Positions 6,239-63,814 of a DNA stretch of 64,000 nt are shown one piece after another. Under the pieces are notes generated by a model that saw only the letters and a program-made list of their open reading frames with translations, ran no database searches and was not told where the DNA came from. Source of the DNA: an uncultured Bacteroidales bacterium (GTDB taxonomy: Bacteria; Bacteroidota; Bacteroidia; Bacteroidales; FEN-979); assembly GCA_903925275.1 (NCBI GenBank), contig CAIYES010000095.1:11225-75224 (forward strand), in the 5' to 3' direction. Positions within the stretch are counted from its first letter, which is position 1. Every line of letters starts with the position of its first letter. The position numbers and the translations under genes were made by a program.

Positions 6239-6395
6239 TGACAAGTGACAAATGACAAGTGACAAATGACAAGTGACGAATGACATTTGGATGTCGAATT
6301 TATAAAGTAGTAATCAGGGTATCAAAACTATAATCGAAAATAGAAAAAGATAAGTTCACAGGTCACTTGTCATTTGTCATTCGTCATTTTTTTTA
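6239..6395. repeat. 7-bp tandem array (TGACAAG/TGACAAA, 7 units, 6239-6287) with an inverted partial copy (6362-6386) followed by a T8 run; possibly a long-loop terminator
   Basis: Read directly from the sequence. The reverse complement of 6362-6386 is TGACGAATGACAAATGACAAGTGAC, which can pair with the first array. TGA occurs in all three plus-strand frames. Confidence 0.9.
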
Positions 6396-36635: not shown

Positions 36636-37631
36636 TCAACCTCCGGCCAATCCATTGGCGTATAAATAGGTTGCAATCTGTACAGCATTGGTGGCTGCAC
36701 CTTTCCGGAGATTATCTGCAACAATGAAGAGATTCAGGGAGTTGGGCTGTGATTCGTCACGTCGAATCCTGCCGACGAATACCTCGTCTTTGCCCTTGGC
36801 CCCGATCGGCATCGGGTAAATGTTATTTTTAATATCATCCTGAACGATTATTCCGGGTGCAGCGCCAAGCAGGGCAAAAATGTCGCGGATTTCATAATCC
36901 CGGCAAAATTCCAGGTTAATGGCTTCGGAATGACCGCCCAGAACAGGAACCCTGACAATCGTGGCCGTAATCCTGATTGAATAATCATCAAGAATTTTTT
37001 GGGTTTCGTTTACCAGTTTCATCTCTTCTGAGGTATAACCATTTTCCTGAAAAACACCTCCATGAGGAAACAGGTTCAGATCGATCGGGTATGGATATGC
37101 CATTTCTCCCATAATACCCTTGCGTTCATTTTCGAGCTGTTGTATGGCTTTTGCTCCCGTTCCGGTTACCGACTGATAAGTTGACGCAACGATGCGTTTG
37201 ATTCCATATTTCGCATGAAGTGGCGCCATAACGAGTACCAATTGAATTGTTGAGCAATTGGGATTGGCGATGATCTTGTGATCTTTAGTCAGAATTGAAG
37301 CGTTTATTTCAGGGACAATTAAAGGAATTGACTGATCCATACGCCAGGCGGAGGAATTATCTATAACCGTTATTCCTGCAGCAGCATAGCGGGGAGCCCA
37401 TTCCCTTGATGCAGCAGCGCCGGCAGAAAAGATTGCAATGTCGGGCTTTGCTCCAATTGCCTGTTCGTGGGTGTGAATAAAATAACTGTTGTGGTTGAAA
37501 GTAAGTGGAAGCCCTGCTGATTTCATTGAAGCGACAGGGATGAATAATTCGGGATAAAGCTTATGTTCATCAAGAACTTTAAGAATCTCGCGTCCCACCA
37601 AACCTGTAACACCGACAATTGCCAGCTTCAT
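36636..37631 (-). CDS. asd: Aspartate-semialdehyde dehydrogenase
   Basis: MKLAIVGVTGLVGRE Rossmann start and active-site block IANPNCSTI. The ORF-track extension to 38015 merely reads through tandem repeats. Confidence 0.9.
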   Translation of the reverse strand: MKLAIVGVTGLVGREILKVLDEHKLYPELFIPVASMKSAGLPLTFNHNSYFIHTHEQAIGAKPDIAIFSAGAAASREWAPRYAAAGITVIDNSSAWRMDQSIPLIVPEINASILTKDHKIIANPNCSTIQLVLVMAPLHAKYGIKRIVASTYQSVTGTGAKAIQQLENERKGIMGEMAYPYPIDLNLFPHGGVFQENGYTSEEMKLVNETQKILDDYSIRITATIVRVPVLGGHSEAINLEFCRDYEIRDIFALLGAAPGIIVQDDIKNNIYPMPIGAKGKDEVFVGRIRRDESQPNSLNLFIVADNLRKGAATNAVQIATYLYANGLAGG

Positions 37632-37661
37632 GTTGTATTTTTTGGCAAAGGTACAGGAAAA

Positions 37662-37782
37662 ATGGTGAAATGGTGAAATGGTGAAATGGTGAAATGGTGA
37701 GATGGTGAGATGGTGAGATGGTGAAATGGTGAAATGGTGAGATGGTGAAATGGTGAAATGGTGAGATGGTGAAATGGTGAAA
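37662..37782. repeat. 8-bp tandem array, 15 units (ATGGTGAA / ATGGTGAG), in the asd / LTD-protein divergent intergenic region
   Basis: Counted directly. Unit order is a a a a g g g a a g a a g a a. The array ends 30 nt from the asd ATG. Confidence 0.95.
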
Positions 37783-37871
37783 AAAATCCGGAATGGGAAG
37801 ATTGGCGGGGAGTTTTTATCAACACAGGTATTACTTTTCGGTAATTTCCGGATTAAGCAGAAAAACCGCAT

Positions 37872-40508
37872 ATGAAAACTTTTTATTCCAGCATTGTCAA
37901 TATTGTCTGCATTGCCTGCATTGTCTGCATTTCCTGCATTGTCTGCATTTCCAGCATTTCCCAGGCCCAGGTGACGGATGATTTTTCGGATGGAAATTTT
38001 TCCAGGAACCCGCAATGGCTAGGGGATACCATGCAGTTTGAGGTCAATACGGCCGGCCAGCTTCATTTAAAAGGTCAAAGCAGCGATACATCCCTATTAA
38101 TGACAAGAAGTGAATCCAGCTCAACCACTGAATGGCGTTTTTGGATAAAATTATCGTTCAACACCTCCTCAAATAATTATGCACGAATCTATCTCGCGTC
38201 AGACACTATAAATGTATTTTCCGCGATGAATGGCTATTTTCTTCAGACGGGTGGTGGGGATGACAGCATCTTTATCATAAAACAGTCGGGCATGGTTCAG
38301 GAAAAGATATACCGTGTTCAATTTTATAAAACGTTTCATTCAACAAATACGTTTCGGATGAAAATCACACGTGATGAAGCAGGGGGCTGGGAGGTAATGA
38401 TTGATACAACCGGGGGATTTAATTATTATCAGGACGGTAGGTTTTCAGACAATTCACTCTTTCCGGCACGATGGATTGGCGTTTGTTGCCGCTATACATC
38501 CAGTAATGCAACGAAATTTTATTTTGATGATTTTTATATAGGGCCGATCATTTATGATACCATTGCACCTTCAGTTATCTCTCAGGAATTTCAGGCAGAG
38601 AAAGTTATTAGGGTTGCTTTCTCAGAGACGATAGAAAGAAGAAACGCAGAGACTCCTGAGAATTATCAACTCGGCCCGGATGTCGGATCTCCTGATTCTG
38701 TCATTATGGATGTGCAGGAGCCTGCCGTAGCTTTGTTTCTTCATGAACCAATGAAAGAAGGCATTTATGGTTCATTGCATATTCAGGGGGTTACTGATTT
38801 GGCTGGAAACCTGATGAAAGATACCGTGGTTCCGGTATGCTGGTATCGGCCGAAAGTTTTTGACATCCTTATACATGAGATCATGGCAGACCCGGATCCT
38901 CCTGTTGAATTGCCGGATGGTGAATTTGTAGAGTTGTTTAACCGCACAGATTTCCCAATAAATCTAAAGGGTTGGAGCTTCAGTTATGGAAGCTATATCA
39001 AGATATTCCCCTCAACGGTCATTTCACCAAAGGGATATTTGCTAATTGTAAAAGATTCATCCTATTTAAGTTACGCAGTATGTGCGGTTTTATTCACATC
39101 TTCCACTTCCTTATCAAATGAAGGAACTGCCCTGATACTGAAAGATCAGTGGAATCATGTTATTCACACTGTTTCATACACCCCGGAATGGTACAAAGGT
39201 TTATTTAAAGGAGAAGGCGGATGGTCGCTGGAGATGATAGATCCGGGAAATCCATGTGGTTGTGGAGAAAACTGGGGCGCATCGCAGGCAAAATCCGGAG
39301 GAACACCCGGGAGTCCAAATTCTATTGGCAAATCCAACCCTGATCTGAAAAGTCCGGTTCCCATGAGAGCCGTGATATCTGATTCGTCATCCTTGGAAGT
39401 TTACTTTTCAGAAGCAATGGACAGCACTTCATTGCTTTCACCGGCAGGCTGGATTATAGGTTCCCCGGATGGGGCGATCCACCCCGTTAGGGCTGAACCG
39501 GTTTCTCCCGGGTTTATTTCAACAAAACTATTGTTCAGCAAAGCTTTTGAACCAGGGATATCTTACACGCTCAATGTTTCGGGTGATTTTAAAGATTGTA
39601 CGGGTAACTATTGCGACACTACCCGAACAGTCAGGTTTGCGATTCCGGATTCCGTGACCCTTCATGACATCGTCATCAACGAAATTTTATCCAATCCAGC
39701 CAGTGGAGGAGCAAGATTTGTTGAGTTAATCAACCGTTCAGAAAAAATTATTGATCTGCAAACCCTGGTATTGGCGAACCGTGACACTGTAACTGGATTT
39801 CTTCCGGGTTCAACACCGCTTTTCCCTTCCGGATATTTATTGTTCCCCGGAGATTATATCGCGCTGACTTCAAGCTCTGATGAAATCCGGGACCGGTATC
39901 ATTCACCTTTCCCGGAAGCCATCGTTTCGATGCAGGGATTTCCAGTGTTCGGAGACGACACAGGAACTGTGATCCTAGCCAGAAAAGATAATTTAATGGT
40001 CATTGACAGGATTCACTATGATCCGGATATGCATTATCCATTGCTGGCAACTTCAGAAGGAGTGTCGTTGGAGCGGACCAATCCGGACATGCCCTCCGAA
40101 AGCAAAGACAATTGGCATTCGTGTGCTGAAACGGCAGGATTTGCTACTCCTGGTTTCATAAATTCGCACTTTGTCATTCATGAAACAACGGATAGGGAAA
40201 TTGTTATCGAACCGTGTGTTTTTTCACCCGACAATGATGGGCATGATGATTTATTGTCCATCATCGTCCGTGAAAATGACCCAGACTGTACGGTCAGCAT
40301 TGAAATTTATGATTCGAAAGGACGAATAATCAACCAATTAGTCAATAACGTGTTAACTGGCAGCGAGGGAATTTTCATCTGGGATGGGATGACCTCTAAC
40401 AAGAACAAGGCACCGCTTGGCTTTTATGTTTTCCTGATTGAAATAACAAGGCCGGATGGTACGGTGAAGCACTATAAAGGGACTGCCGTGCTGGGGGGAA
40501 GACTCTGA
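37872..40508 (+). CDS. Secreted protein with two lamin-tail domains (LTD) and a C-terminal beta-sandwich carrying an FSPDNDGHDD motif
   Basis: LTD signatures HEIMADPDPPVELPDGEFVELFN...LKGW and NEILSNPASGGARFVELIN. The signal peptide ends SQAQ. The C-terminal FSPDNDG motif resembles T9SS type-B/FlgD-Ig-like domains. Confidence 0.7.
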   Translation: MKTFYSSIVNIVCIACIVCISCIVCISSISQAQVTDDFSDGNFSRNPQWLGDTMQFEVNTAGQLHLKGQSSDTSLLMTRSESSSTTEWRFWIKLSFNTSSNNYARIYLASDTINVFSAMNGYFLQTGGGDDSIFIIKQSGMVQEKIYRVQFYKTFHSTNTFRMKITRDEAGGWEVMIDTTGGFNYYQDGRFSDNSLFPARWIGVCCRYTSSNATKFYFDDFYIGPIIYDTIAPSVISQEFQAEKVIRVAFSETIERRNAETPENYQLGPDVGSPDSVIMDVQEPAVALFLHEPMKEGIYGSLHIQGVTDLAGNLMKDTVVPVCWYRPKVFDILIHEIMADPDPPVELPDGEFVELFNRTDFPINLKGWSFSYGSYIKIFPSTVISPKGYLLIVKDSSYLSYAVCAVLFTSSTSLSNEGTALILKDQWNHVIHTVSYTPEWYKGLFKGEGGWSLEMIDPGNPCGCGENWGASQAKSGGTPGSPNSIGKSNPDLKSPVPMRAVISDSSSLEVYFSEAMDSTSLLSPAGWIIGSPDGAIHPVRAEPVSPGFISTKLLFSKAFEPGISYTLNVSGDFKDCTGNYCDTTRTVRFAIPDSVTLHDIVINEILSNPASGGARFVELINRSEKIIDLQTLVLANRDTVTGFLPGSTPLFPSGYLLFPGDYIALTSSSDEIRDRYHSPFPEAIVSMQGFPVFGDDTGTVILARKDNLMVIDRIHYDPDMHYPLLATSEGVSLERTNPDMPSESKDNWHSCAETAGFATPGFINSHFVIHETTDREIVIEPCVFSPDNDGHDDLLSIIVRENDPDCTVSIEIYDSKGRIINQLVNNVLTGSEGIFIWDGMTSNKNKAPLGFYVFLIEITRPDGTVKHYKGTAVLGGRL
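37891..37962. repeat. 9-bp tandem array, about 8 units (GCATTGTCT / GCATTGCCT / GCATTTCCT), inside the signal-peptide coding region of the LTD protein
   Basis: Counted directly. It translates in frame as IVNIVCIACIVCISCIVCISSIS. ATTGCCTGC is the reverse complement of the GCAGGCAAT unit at 62958-63083. Confidence 0.9.
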
Positions 40509-41289: not shown

Positions 41290-42963
41290 ATGACATTCAA
41301 TCCTTTGCTTGAGGTACGCGATCTGTCAATCGGTTTTACAGCCGACAACCAGGAGCTGATGGTGGTGGATCACATATCTTTTCAGTTAAAGGAAGCTGAA
41401 ACCCTTGCCGTAGTGGGGGAGTCGGGCTCCGGGAAAACCGTTACGGCATTGGCAATACTCAGGTTGATCCCAACACCTCCGGGTAGAATTTCAAGCGGGG
41501 AAATTTTATTCAGAAATGGGAATAGCGGGGTAACCGATATCCTGCGCATCGGGGAGGGTGAAGTTCAAAAACTCAGGGGATTCAGGATTTCAATGATTTT
41601 CCAGGAACCCATGACCTCGTTGAATCCCGTATTTACCTGCGGTGACCAGGTTACGGAAAGTCTTCGAATTCATCTGGGATTTACGAAAAAACAGTCCCGT
41701 GAAAAAGTACTGGATTTATTCAGTGAAGTTAAGCTCCCAAGGCCGGAGGCCGTGTTTAATAATTATCCGCACCAGCTTTCGGGCGGCCAGAAGCAACGTG
41801 TCATGATCGCCATGGCCATTGCATGTAATCCTGCAATTCTGATTGCTGACGAACCAACCACGGCACTGGATGTGACGGTCCAGAAAACAATTCTTGAGCT
41901 GTTAAAAAACCTGCAGTCAACCCGGAAAATGAGCATCCTGTTTATTACCCATGACCTCGGGCTTGTTGCCGGATTCGCCGACAGGGTTTTAGTTATGCAT
42001 GGAGGTAAGCTTGTTGAACAAGGTAATGTTACCGATATTTTTCAATCGCCTCAGCATGCCTACACCCGTGGATTGCTGGCTTGCCGCCCCCCGCTTGATT
42101 CCAGGCCATCCCGTTTGCCCACCATTGAAAAATATCTTAATGACAATCGGGAGGTGGCAGTACCGATCGTAACCCCGGATGAGCGAAAAAGTGAACATGA
42201 ACGGCTTTTTGCTCAGAAACCCATCTTACTCATTGAAAAACTGAGTAAACATTTTGGATCTTTTCCTGCATTGGAAAAGGCAAGTTTTAATGTATATCCA
42301 GGTGAAACCCTTGGAATTGTGGGCGAATCCGGAAGTGGAAAAACCACACTTGCCCGCGTGGTACTTGAACTTCTTCCTGCTTCCGAAGGAAAGGTGTTTT
42401 ATCGGGACTGCGATATTACAAGGCTGACCTCCCATAAACTTAAAGCACTTCGCAAAGACTTGCAGATCATATTCCAGGATCCTTATTCTTCGTTAAATCC
42501 AAGGATCTCTGCCGGTTCAGCAATTCTTGAGCCGATGAAGGTTCATAAATTGCATCGGAATGACACAACCCGAAAGGAAAGGGTGATGGAGCTCCTGCAA
42601 AAAGTTGGTCTGAAACCTGAACATTTTTCCCGTTATCCGCATGAGTTTTCGGGCGGCCAGCGGCAACGGATCTGCATTGCCAGGGCATTGGCTGTCGAAC
42701 CACGGCTGATCATCTGCGACGAATCGGTTTCAGCGTTAGATGTTTCCATCCAGGCCCAGGTATTGAACCTGCTGAATGATCTGAAAAAAGATTATGGGCT
42801 GACCTACATTTTTATCTCCCATGATCTGTCGGTTGTTAAATTCATGTCGGACCGTTTGATTGTTATGAAGAATGGAAAAATCGAAGAGATTGGAGAGGCC
42901 GACCAGGTTTATGCAAATCCACAATCGGAATATACAAGAGCGTTGCTGGAGGCGGTCAGGTAA
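41290..42963 (+). CDS. ABC transporter ATP-binding protein with two fused ATPase domains (peptide-type, YejF/GsiA-like)
   Basis: Two Walker A motifs (GESGSGKT twice), two LSGGQ signatures (LSGGQKQR, FSGGQRQR) and two Walker B motifs. No permease gene is adjacent. Confidence 0.9.
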   Translation: MTFNPLLEVRDLSIGFTADNQELMVVDHISFQLKEAETLAVVGESGSGKTVTALAILRLIPTPPGRISSGEILFRNGNSGVTDILRIGEGEVQKLRGFRISMIFQEPMTSLNPVFTCGDQVTESLRIHLGFTKKQSREKVLDLFSEVKLPRPEAVFNNYPHQLSGGQKQRVMIAMAIACNPAILIADEPTTALDVTVQKTILELLKNLQSTRKMSILFITHDLGLVAGFADRVLVMHGGKLVEQGNVTDIFQSPQHAYTRGLLACRPPLDSRPSRLPTIEKYLNDNREVAVPIVTPDERKSEHERLFAQKPILLIEKLSKHFGSFPALEKASFNVYPGETLGIVGESGSGKTTLARVVLELLPASEGKVFYRDCDITRLTSHKLKALRKDLQIIFQDPYSSLNPRISAGSAILEPMKVHKLHRNDTTRKERVMELLQKVGLKPEHFSRYPHEFSGGQRQRICIARALAVEPRLIICDESVSALDVSIQAQVLNLLNDLKKDYGLTYIFISHDLSVVKFMSDRLIVMKNGKIEEIGEADQVYANPQSEYTRALLEAVR

Positions 42964-42996
42964 TGAAATGGTGAAATAGTGAAATGGTGAAATGGT
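42962..42996. repeat. Short 8-bp array (about 4 units of TGGTGAAA-type) between the ABC ATPase stop and the rnr start
   Basis: Sequence aatgaaatggtgaaatagtgaaatggtgaaatgg, the same unit family as 37662-37782. Confidence 0.8.
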
Positions 42997-61192: not shown

Positions 61193-62245
61193 ATGATATT
61201 CAGCAACCTTTCTCACAAGAGCAAACGGAATTTTATTTTTCAGCAGCTTTTTTTCTGGCTGATCAGTGTTGTATTGTTTACTGTAGTGCTCATTTATACC
61301 AGGGGTGATTTTAATTTCTACAGCATCGATCTGCGGCTGACGATCAACATCCTTATTACCATAGGGTTTCTGGCAATCTCGGTGTACATCAACTTATTGT
61401 GGCTGATTCCGGTATTTTTCAATAAAAGAAGATTTTTCTTGTTTTTTCTCCTTGAACTTGCCAACATTCTCCTGTTCATTCTGCTAAATTATTTTGTAAC
61501 CTATTTTTTTGAAGGAGGGAATCATCCGAATTTTATAACCGAATTTGTTGCTGAATTCATTCTGATCCTGCTGTTTCTGATCGTATCAACCTTGCTGCAG
61601 GTAATGCGCGATTCAATCACATTGCAGGATGTAGAGCTGCGGATGAAGGAGGTACAAAAACAAAAGATTGAATCAGAACTCAGAGCGCTCAAAGCGCAGA
61701 TAAATCCTCATTTTTTATTCAACACTCTGAACAGCCTTTATTCCCTGAGTCTCGACAAATCGGAAAAAGCGCCTGAAATGATCCTGAAGCTTTCCGACCT
61801 GATGCGGTATGTTATTTACGAGTCGAATGACGACCTGGTACCGGTATCAAAACAATTGGAATTTCTTCAAAGTTATGTTTACCTGGAACGGTTGCGTGCC
61901 GATGAAAACCTTAAAATCGAGTTCGAAGTAAAGGGCAATAATTTTGAACTTAAAATCGCTCCGCTATTGTACATTGCATTTATTGAAAATGCATTTAAAC
62001 ATGGATCGAAAGCGAAAAGTGACAATCCTTTTATTCATATTGCATTTGATCTGGAACACCAAGACCGGATTGGTTTCTTCATTGAAAACAGGATGGACAC
62101 GTTTCATGAAAAAACACCTTCCGGCGGATTTGGGTTGTCTAATGTTAAAAAGCGGCTTGAATTGCTATATCCCGGCAGGTATATATTGAATATTCGTGAA
62201 ATATCATCTGTTTATCGGGCAGAATTAACTATTTTAGTCGCATGA
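61193..62245 (+). CDS. LytS/YehU-type sensor histidine kinase
   Basis: TM N-terminus, QINPHFLFNTLNSLYSL block and a C-terminal HATPase. Paralogous to 54251-55276. Confidence 0.85.
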   Translation: MIFSNLSHKSKRNFIFQQLFFWLISVVLFTVVLIYTRGDFNFYSIDLRLTINILITIGFLAISVYINLLWLIPVFFNKRRFFLFFLLELANILLFILLNYFVTYFFEGGNHPNFITEFVAEFILILLFLIVSTLLQVMRDSITLQDVELRMKEVQKQKIESELRALKAQINPHFLFNTLNSLYSLSLDKSEKAPEMILKLSDLMRYVIYESNDDLVPVSKQLEFLQSYVYLERLRADENLKIEFEVKGNNFELKIAPLLYIAFIENAFKHGSKAKSDNPFIHIAFDLEHQDRIGFFIENRMDTFHEKTPSGGFGLSNVKKRLELLYPGRYILNIREISSVYRAELTILVA

Positions 62246-62958
62246 ACATCCGGTGTTTAATAATCGATGATGAACCGCTTGCACAGCGTGTCATTGAAAA
62301 GTATACTGAGAATATTCCGTTTCTCGAGATCGTCGGGAAATGCAGCAATGCGGTTGAAGCCATTGAAGTGCTGCATAACCGGGAGGTTGATCTTTTATTC
62401 CTGGATATCAACATGCCAAGGCTTAATGGCATGGACTTTCTTAAAACCCTGAAAAACCCGCCATTGGTCATCATTACCACGGCCTATGCTGAATATGCCA
62501 TCCAGGGGTATGAGCTTGATGTAGTTGATTATCTGATGAAACCGTTTGCTTTTGACCGGTTTTACAAGGCCATCCAGAAAGTCGAAGAGATGATAAAAGG
62601 GAGGGAAATACCCCAAACCGAAGCCAAAGAGGCAACCAGACAGGAAGAGACCTTCATTTTTGTCAAATCAAGTAAAAAAACCTATAAGGTCAACCTGGAT
62701 GAAATCCTTTACATTGAAGCTTTGGGAGATTATGTAAAGATATACACCACAGAGAAAATGATTATCAGCTACCAGTCGCTGAAGAATATTGAATCACTCC
62801 TGCCGGCCTCCTCTTTCCCGCGGATTCATAAATCATTTATCATAGCCTTGTCGCGTATTGATCTGATCGAGGGGAATCACGTAAAGATCAAAGACCGGCA
62901 GATTCCGATCGGCACTAATTTTAAATCTGAATTTGAGAGGCTTATTAAATCTATTTAA
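62242..62958 (+). CDS. LytTR-family response regulator
   Basis: Receiver domain (IIDDEP, DLLFLDINMP, KPF) plus LytTR domain (ILYIEALGDYVKIYT, RIHKSF). It overlaps the kinase stop by 4 nt. Confidence 0.9.
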   Translation: MNIRCLIIDDEPLAQRVIEKYTENIPFLEIVGKCSNAVEAIEVLHNREVDLLFLDINMPRLNGMDFLKTLKNPPLVIITTAYAEYAIQGYELDVVDYLMKPFAFDRFYKAIQKVEEMIKGREIPQTEAKEATRQEETFIFVKSSKKTYKVNLDEILYIEALGDYVKIYTTEKMIISYQSLKNIESLLPASSFPRIHKSFIIALSRIDLIEGNHVKIKDRQIPIGTNFKSEFERLIKSI

Positions 62959-63083
62959 TGCAGGCCATGCAAACAATGCAGGCAATGCAGGCAATGCAAA
63001 CAATGCAGGCAATGCAAACAATGCAGGCAATGCAGGCAATGCAAACAATGCAGGCAATGCAAACAATGCAGGCAATGCAGGCA
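62958..63083. repeat. 9-bp tandem array, 14 units (ATGCAGGCA / ATGCAAACA), beginning at the response-regulator stop codon (TAATG)
   Basis: Counted directly. Higher-order 45-nt periodicity (units A G G A G). It is open on the plus strand as MQAMQTMQAMQA...I, with the stop at 63087-63089. Confidence 0.95.
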
Positions 63084-63111
63084 ATTTAAATTATGCAGGA
63101 ATGTATTAATT

Positions 63112-63139
63112 ATTGCCTATTGCCTACTGCCTACTGCCT
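63112..63139. repeat. 7-bp tandem array, 4 units (ATTGCCT / ACTGCCT), partly complementary to the preceding 9-mer array
   Basis: Read directly. The reverse complement AGGCAAT is contained in the GCAGGCAAT unit. Confidence 0.85.
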
Positions 63140-63142
63140 GAA

Positions 63143-63814
63143 TTAAGGCACCTTTAAGGAGATCCCTCTGAAAAACTCTAGGAGGGAGCCTGAGATAAAA
63201 AACACCCCGATGATCATAAACAGGAGGCCAACGATCCGGTTCATCCATAATTTTACCTGAGGATTACCGGCAATTTTGATCTTGGTGGCCAGAACGACTT
63301 TAAGAATATCAGTCATCAGAATAACGGACAAGGTCCCGATAAAAAAAAGTGCTACAGCCTTCTGATTTCCGCCATAAGTGGCATTGATGGCAAGCATCGA
63401 AGTAATCCAGAACACCCAGAGAAATGGATTGGCGAAATTCAGCACAAACCCTTTAAAAAAATAGGGCATCCGGCCGTTTTTCTTTACTTTGATCTCGCTG
63501 ATTGCCTCGACCTGCTCGGTCATGGGAACCTTTTTAAAAAAGGTATATACTCCGTAAATAGTCATTACAATGCCACCGATTATTCCAAGTATCAGGTGAT
63601 ATTTAGGATTGGTGACGATTGCAGAGGCGCCGAAGTAGAACCCTACCACAAGGGCCAGGTCGCTGGTAAATATTCCGGCGGCAAGGAATATCCCGGTTTT
63701 TATCCCGTGCTTGATGCTTGTCTGAAGCAATGCAAACAACGCGGGCCCGATTGAAATGGCAACTGTCAGCCCCAGGATAATGCCTTCAAATAAGGGATGT
63801 AAAATCGAACTCAA
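63143..63814 (-). CDS. LysE/RhtB-family amino-acid exporter
   Basis: 223 aa with 6 TM helices and an N-terminal pattern GLTVAISIGPALFALLQTS typical of the LysE family. TTG start. Confidence 0.8.
   Translation of the reverse strand: MSSILHPLFEGIILGLTVAISIGPALFALLQTSIKHGIKTGIFLAAGIFTSDLALVVGFYFGASAIVTNPKYHLILGIIGGIVMTIYGVYTFFKKVPMTEQVEAISEIKVKKNGRMPYFFKGFVLNFANPFLWVFWITSMLAINATYGGNQKAVALFFIGTLSVILMTDILKVVLATKIKIAGNPQVKLWMNRIVGLLFMIIGVFFISGSLLEFFRGISLKVP

Follow-up and report, generated by a model that had tools for sequence, protein, structure and literature searches.

Enterobacterial REP/BIME elements, whose unit is a palindrome of ~35 bp linked to RAYT transposases, occupy 3' untranslated regions (UTRs) and the space between convergent genes, often a few nucleotides from the stop codon, and can stabilise the upstream mRNA. 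The STRR heptamers of cyanobacteria belong to the prokaryotic simple repeats with units of 5–11 nt. These form a known class in which heptamers are commonest and units that are a multiple of three are tolerated in coding DNA, according to the summary of Mrazek (2007) given in PMC4679880. Here we describe a tandem array of 14 nine-bp units that follows the stop codon of a LytTR-type response regulator gene in an uncultured Bacteroidales bacterium of the lineage FEN-979 (assembly GCA_903925275.1, contig CAIYES010000095.1, positions 11,225 to 75,224; this whole stretch of 64,000 nt is called the window). The array is likely to be a non-coding, slippage-prone simple sequence repeat (SSR) and one copy of a dispersed family, and this 9-mer family in Bacteroidota is a new addition to the described class.

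The closest precedent in behaviour is provided by the G-rich heptamer SSRs of Xanthomonas and Nostoc. These lie within 50 bp of stop codons, which they sometimes overlap, have their purine-rich strand as the sense strand, and often occur as inverted pairs that may form stem-loops (Rehm et al., 2015; PMC4692102). The TAACTGA heptamers of Beggiatoaceae, Cyanobacteria and some Bacteroidetes instead lie, for the most part, a short way upstream of start codons and in forward orientation (MacGregor, 2015; PMC4679880).

In the window, the first repeat unit overlaps the TAA stop codon of the regulator gene (62956–62958), and the purine-rich strand of the array is the sense strand of that gene. Tandem Repeats Finder (TRF) reported a period of 9 at 62957–63085 (14.3 copies, score 181) and a 45-nt super-repeat at 62957–63103 (3.3 copies, 94% matches, score 252). 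Unit-by-unit parsing gave the order of the super-period as AATGCAGGC AATGCAAAC AATGCAGGC AATGCAGGC AATGCAAAC, repeated ~2.8 times, with a single variant unit, CATGCAAAC, second in order. A heptamer array (TRF: TGCCTAC, 3.7 copies at 63114–63139) begins 3 nt past the stop codon of the convergent LysE-family exporter gene, and its plus-strand units ATTGCCT/ACTGCCT, read from 63112, equal the reverse-complement 9-mer ATTGCCTGC without GC. An earlier note on this DNA had described the 14-unit array with its super-period, a TAATG stop-start overlap opening a 43-codon frame (ATG at 62958, stop at 63087–63089) and a partly complementary 7-mer array at 63112–63139; TRF, the unit parsing and the list of open reading frames (ORFs) bear out all three. 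An assembly artefact was ruled out, because the LysE gene, the 43-codon ORF and the LytTR gene have identical spacing in two independent assemblies.

The array is not alone. At least 102 stretches with three consecutive units were found in a scan of species-representative genomes, and among the matches listed, most lie in a handful of freshwater Bacteroidales/Prolixibacteraceae-like metagenome-assembled genomes (MAGs), with many loci each; none of the matching representatives is the genome of the window itself. The comparison loci that were fetched are labelled with L-numbers, and the closest of them to the window is L078 (~77% nucleotide identity). Within the window, a second copy of the 9-mer lies in reverse complement at 37891–37961, and the 12-mer GCAGGCAATGCA, allowing ≤2 mismatches, has 28 occurrences where shuffles give 6.6 ± 2.3. 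Period-7 and period-8 arrays built from other units are also plentiful in the DNA around the family loci, and TRF found other short-period arrays in the window at 6239–6285, 6362–6389, 37660–37782 and 42964–42996. A literature search for the repeat unit gave only two chance matches, in unrelated papers, neither the 9-mer family nor its host clade appears in the literature searched, and an Rfam 15 scan of 62700–63400 returned only noise (best RT-1, at 21 bits versus the 106 needed).

The family follows a clear placement rule. Gene neighbours were taken from simple longest-ORF calls; 20 array-preceding genes were checked against Pfam, and all of them carry domains, with unrelated functions and no LytTR regulator among them. 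Where both neighbours are known, 42 of 45 intergenic arrays, read in the AATGCARRC orientation, are preceded by the stop codon of a same-strand gene; 32 of those 42 lie within 10 nt of that stop, compared with 7.5 expected under uniform placement. Between tandem genes, 28 arrays are sense and 2 antisense (p ~9e-7), and between convergent genes the array is sense to the nearer gene in 13/14 cases. A second array follows within 120 nt after 15 of 55 family arrays, and second arrays are mostly pyrimidine-rich (13/16). At the present locus, both the 9-mers and the LysE-side heptamers obey the sense-strand, stop-adjacent rule.

These features place the 9-mers close to the Xanthomonas and Nostoc heptamers, with which they have in common dispersed tandem units of 7–9 nt, a mostly intergenic location, a purine-rich sense strand after stops and under-representation between divergent genes. 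They differ from them in the 9-bp unit AATGCARRC, in the host phylum Bacteroidota, in the rarity of complementary partners (7/56 arrays) as compared with the inverted pairs, and in their persistence inside genes, in signal peptides and loops. The 9-mer survives there because its unit length is a multiple of 3. A G-quadruplex is not possible, since at least four tracts of at least three G are needed and AATGCAGGC has at most GG. Similarly to the simple repeats with 5–11-nt units, the 9-mer arrays are lineage-specific, sporadic and slippage-prone, although heptamers dominate among the repeats described. With REP/BIME they share dispersal in the 3'-UTR niche and between convergent genes, whereas the 9-bp direct-repeat unit has no internal dyad symmetry. 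Also, like the TAACTGA repeats, they are intergenic, form long arrays in some Bacteroidetes, have contigs ending inside them and are absent at the site in related strains (PMC4679880); in contrast to those repeats, they abut stop codons, and the unit is unrelated.

To compare orthologous sites, 46 metagenomic loci with genes for related regulators were fetched, and the sequence 3' of the stop codon was inspected. The spacer between the convergent LytTR and LysE genes is hypervariable, from 0 to 184 nt, with that of the window the longest, and it holds 9-mer arrays (3–14 units), an 8-bp-unit array, other heptamers, GC-rich hairpins or nothing. At 93% protein identity, L106 has TAATG and 7 units, with a frame of ~27 codons and a different tail. 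In L108 (91%), most units after TAATG are 8 bp long (AATGCAGG x 10), and the ATG frame ends after 8 codons. Three relatives at ~84% identity (L109, L114 and L118) have a TAG stop, a first ATG 16 nt further on and ~8, ~8 and ~5 units, respectively, in differing order, and L112 has a decayed array containing ATG-TAA units. Further loci hold other heptamer families with inverted partners (L110, L121) or GC-rich hairpins (L142, L124); in L111 and L136 the two stop codons overlap, leaving zero spacer, and several others have short unrelated spacers without an array. The heptamer partner is absent in the compared array-bearing orthologues (L106, L108, L109, L112, L114, L117 and L118). On the LysE side, L153 (after 706) encodes a 100% identical exporter but has at least 7 heptamers ((GGCAGTA)2 GGCAATA (GGCAGTA)3 ...) versus 4 in the window, which is strain-level copy-number variation.

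Turnover by slippage is indicated by the 45-nt super-period, by differences in unit number and order between related contigs and by the decay of units towards the 3' edge; the array would expand and shrink via duplication and deletion of units (9 bp) and blocks (45 bp). It would be transcribed as an untranslated 3' tail of the regulator mRNA and most likely persists after the stop because it is harmless. Its sole structural consequence at this locus would be a predicted imperfect hairpin with the heptamers, common to both convergent 3' ends, which may slow exonucleases or RNA polymerase there; because the hairpin is not conserved in relatives, any such role would be dispensable. We hold with considerable confidence that the array is non-coding. 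That it is a tolerated passenger without specific function has a modest balance of probability in its favour, while a real 3'-end role is a distinctly less probable alternative.

The earlier note had considered a possible (MQA/MQT)14 micro-protein. In such a reading, ribosomes that terminate at the LytTR stop would re-initiate at TAATG and make a functional 43-aa peptide. The overlap and the unbroken frame do invite such a reading, gene callers emit the same frame on contigs of two other assemblies, and in 46/54 family arrays the frame is open from the first ATG. However, both unit types are stop-free in all six frames, and each unit carries an ATG, so that an ATG frame across the array is expected whether or not it is translated. 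The listed ORFs across the array run in four frames (83, 58, 43 and 35 aa), and of random 9-mers with matching composition, ~30% likewise form repeats that lack stops in every one of the six frames. The MQA/MQT frame is judged to be a by-product of a stop-free, ATG-containing unit, not a gene. Family-wide frame tests on 54 complete intergenic arrays and a comparison of 519 units lead in the same direction. ATG-to-ATG spacing is not divisible by 3 in 14 of the 54 arrays, and in eight the frame of the first ATG stops within the array. Position 1 of the unit would fall, in the MQ(A/T) frame, on the third, four-fold-degenerate base of an Ala/Thr codon; it is A in 98.8% of the units and is the most conserved position. 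Variation sits at positions 5 and 7–9, without 3-nt periodicity. This conservation of a degenerate position, together with the lack of a 3-nt rhythm, means that constraint or homogenisation acts on the nucleotides CAATGCA, not on the peptide. In addition, the frame changes length and tail in the two closest regulator orthologues (L106 and L108, at 91–93% identity) and is missing in many others, and an exact look-up in a collection of 15 billion proteins did not find the 43-aa peptide.

The TAATG junction is equally uninformative. Among the 40 arrays that start ≤10 nt from a sense-strand stop, it occurs in eight; the distance from the stop codon (its first base) to the first ATG is 2–15 nt, and the usage of TAA, TGA and TAG matches the background. 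At many loci, the stop codon lies inside a degenerate first unit, for example AATGA. Period-8 arrays, which keep no frame and often contain TAG or TGA, take the same stop-abutting place even with stops in every frame (11/15 within 10 nt of a stop). One of them, at 42961–42996 in the window, consists of (TGAAATGG) x 4, lies upstream of an RNase R gene and has its first base at the TAA that ends an ABC-ATPase gene, again as TAATG; its period of 8 and the TGA in its unit make it non-coding. As an array of this kind has the same junction, TAATG is no coding signal. A few sense arrays do abut or overlap the start codons of real genes in the MQT frame (L035 6996–7049, L038 3732–3777, L041 7567–7621 and L097 6466–6519). 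At these four loci, of which MKTMQTMQTMQTMKQ-IFAFAISLLLL is an example, the start codon seems to come from the last unit, and translation could begin from several in-frame ATGs. The earlier note had itself named copies with frame-breaking units, or without an initiating ATG context, as what would speak against a gene. Both kinds exist: frames broken in L108 and L112, 8-bp and ATG-TAA units within the family, TAATG at a minority of stop-adjacent arrays, and the TAG stop with its 16-nt gap in L109, L114 and L118. The micro-protein is thereby refuted as a conserved gene, and a functional peptide is very improbable.

Table 1. Features of the LytTR/LysE intergenic region in the window
Feature	Position	Strand	Basis
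LytTR-type response regulator gene	62242..62958	+	ORF; Pfam Response_reg 3.4e-22, LytTR 1.7e-18
14 nine-bp units (AATGCAGGC / AATGCAAAC) with 45-nt super-period	62957..63085	+	TRF, unit parsing
43-codon ATG frame (MQA/MQT)n, MQAMQT...MQAI	62958..63089	+	ORF list; judged a by-product, not a gene
Spacer of decayed units (AATTTAAAT TATGCAGGA ATGTATTAA...), top of the predicted hairpin	63086..63111		Sequence, fold
Heptamer array (AGGCAGT)2(AGGCAAT)2, purine-rich	63112..63139	-	TRF
Predicted imperfect hairpin of the last ~2 nine-bp units and the heptamers (7-bp helices, 2-nt bulges)	63068..63130		Folding
LysE-family exporter gene, convergent	63143..63814	-	ORF; Pfam LysE 6.5e-24

The earlier note had offered a structured terminator between the convergent genes as its alternative. 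Such a bidirectional terminator or 3'-end stabiliser, similar to REP/BIME, would end or protect both transcripts through a hairpin of units and heptamers. In minimum free energy (MFE) and centroid folds, the heptamers form pairs with the two to three 9-bp units nearest to them (MFE −21.0 kcal/mol for 63065–63142 and −30.6 for 63047–63142), and the duplex of array and downstream sequence beats dinucleotide shuffles (z = −3.0). Pairing of the 9-mer with an NNTGCCT heptamer recurs at L022, where a T-run follows, and at L083; other hairpins occur in the orthologous spacers of L110, L121 and L142, and Xanthomonas transcripts begin or end at such repeats more often than at a control repeat set (PMC4692102). 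On the other hand, shuffled versions of the whole 184-nt spacer fold as well as the spacer itself (z −0.3 to −0.5), the predicted hairpin leaves out ~11 of the 14 units, and a consensus terminator/promoter scan of the spacer gave no U-tract and no terminator-like site on either strand. The sense-strand unit, judged from its sequence for a Rho-loading site, has no YC dinucleotides. An array with a complementary partner was rejected as a family feature, as only 7/56 arrays have one at z < −2, with a median duplex z of +0.2. A structure conserved across the orthologous spacers was likewise rejected (z < −2 in only 6/21 spacers); with orthologous spacers mostly unstructured or very short, four of them 0–19 nt, and with the heptamers missing from the array-bearing relatives, the site does not require the hairpin. 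A search for a hairpin plus T-run in the sequence following 55 family arrays yielded 5 hits, as many as in coding controls. The non-coding part of that alternative stood, and a hairpin is predicted; termination as a conserved function is without support. A modest 3'-end role at this locus is possible, and we consider it unlikely that both transcripts are ended or protected in this manner.

A broader proposal, in which purine-rich stop-adjacent arrays form a family-wide 3'-end signal acting on RNA or on transcribed DNA, is less probable still. The arrays might serve as a platform for single-stranded-RNA-binding proteins, yield R-loop-prone transcripts that pause the polymerase, or act as an unstructured spacer affecting termination or ribosome recycling in the Shine-Dalgarno-independent Bacteroidota. 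The orientation and position bias is very strong, it is common to arrays that differ in unit sequence and period, arrays persist at the ends of orthologous genes from separate MAGs, a pyrimidine-rich second array often follows, and a like rule has been reported from two other phyla (PMC4692102). Still, the array types have no common sequence, turnover at the LytTR/LysE site is high and includes total absence, and the units are also tolerated in signal peptides and protein loops, which fits tolerance wherever they are harmless. That sense-strand, stop-abutting, purine-rich arrays are a functional 3'-end device across phyla as distant as those of Bacteroidota, Xanthomonas and Nostoc is doubtful. 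Binding of the adjacent regulator to the array as iterons was considered as well, given the 9-bp unit and the adjoining LytTR gene. LytTR sites are indeed 9-bp direct repeats (AgrA, ComE, PlnC). They occur as 9-mer pairs ~12–13 bp apart, near the target promoters of the regulator. The units here are contiguous and lie between two convergent 3' ends, many LytTR orthologues have no array, and a LytTR regulator is among 0/20 genes preceding arrays; this reading is effectively refuted and carries next to no weight.

Several points weigh against the favoured explanation. The open frame in 46/54 arrays means that incidental translation may occur. The neighbouring genes come from simple ORF calls, even though all 20 tested have Pfam domains, and the p-values are optimistic because several loci may come from one MAG or from related MAGs and do not count as independent. 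Unlike at the hypervariable LytTR/LysE site, a 9-mer array is kept at the stop codon of orthologous genes across MAGs, for an Era GTPase (L062/L069) and a GT2 glycosyltransferase (L040/L056). The strong sense-strand, stop-abutting placement is unexplained by neutral slippage and hints at a selective or mechanistic cause; RNA-level selection, or an expansion bias tied to purine-rich transcripts, may be put forward as speculation.

Inside genes, the 9-mer is read in varied frames, as antisense CIV/LSA/PAL in signal-peptide cores and as sense NAN in loops. In the window, the reverse-complement copy at 37891–37961 encodes the hydrophobic core SIVNIVCIACIVCISCIVCISSI of the signal peptide of an ORF at 37872–40508 (+), whose 878-aa product is an LTD/Big_5/CHU_C (type IX secretion) protein. 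L078 (~77% nucleotide identity) encodes an orthologue with a separate array of its own in the corresponding position (2186–2238, CIVCIACIVCIVCISFIA), and antisense arrays in LSA, PAL/FAL and IVC frames are found in the N-terminal regions of ORFs at L016, L019, L072 and L098. L012, L034, L081 and L096, with several arrays each, encode large repetitive-domain proteins with the motif ...YQWK-INA(G/N)NANNANNAS-Y.Y..., whose N-A-N stretch, embedded in a recurring protein loop, is encoded by the 9-mer in the sense NAN frame.

Other units are found in the window as well. A period-8 array, (AAATGGTG) x 15.4 at 37660–37782, occupies the divergent spacer upstream of the ORF at 37872; the orthologous spacer in L078 (2056–2103) has a different 8-mer array, ACAGGCGG, so that position is kept and the unit is not. 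Further, (TGACAAR) x 6.7 at 6239–6285 begins 24 nt past the purH stop, and (GTCATTT) x 4 at 6362–6389, ~75 nt further on and 37 nt before mreB, is its inverted partner; the pair resembles those of L110 and L121.

Such repeats have practical consequences for the reading of metagenomic sequence. Stop-free simple repeats make convincing but spurious small ORFs, as the 43-aa frame emitted by gene callers illustrates. A 459-aa TTG ORF at 36636–38015 (−) in the window is listed only because its frame passes through a pair of stop-free arrays; on the minus strand, the actual gene probably begins at an ATG near 37633. Such repeats also break or mis-join short-read assemblies (L001, L002, L105 and L151). 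Contigs L002 and L105, with an identical regulator, end inside the array. L001 (10716–10770, LytTR side) and L151 (after 2172, LysE side), from the same sample, continue past it into unrelated genes, of which one is pth-like and the other, beyond the opposite side, is a different gene. These ends and exits are probably assembly chimeras through arrays common to several loci, as is expected of an assembler that meets such a repeat.

The significance of the array lies not in the present locus but in the placement rule of its family, along with a practical warning on false ORFs and broken assemblies. The rule is unusually clean, with the purine-rich strand as the sense strand and the array starting at the stop codon. 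If a 3'-end signal were true, the arrays would set transcript ends, mRNA lifetime or the fate of ribosomes after termination, and copy number would be a fast-evolving tuning knob. The rule matches the unexplained observation in Xanthomonas and Nostoc, which suggests that a selective or mutational factor at gene 3' ends shapes the location of such repeats.

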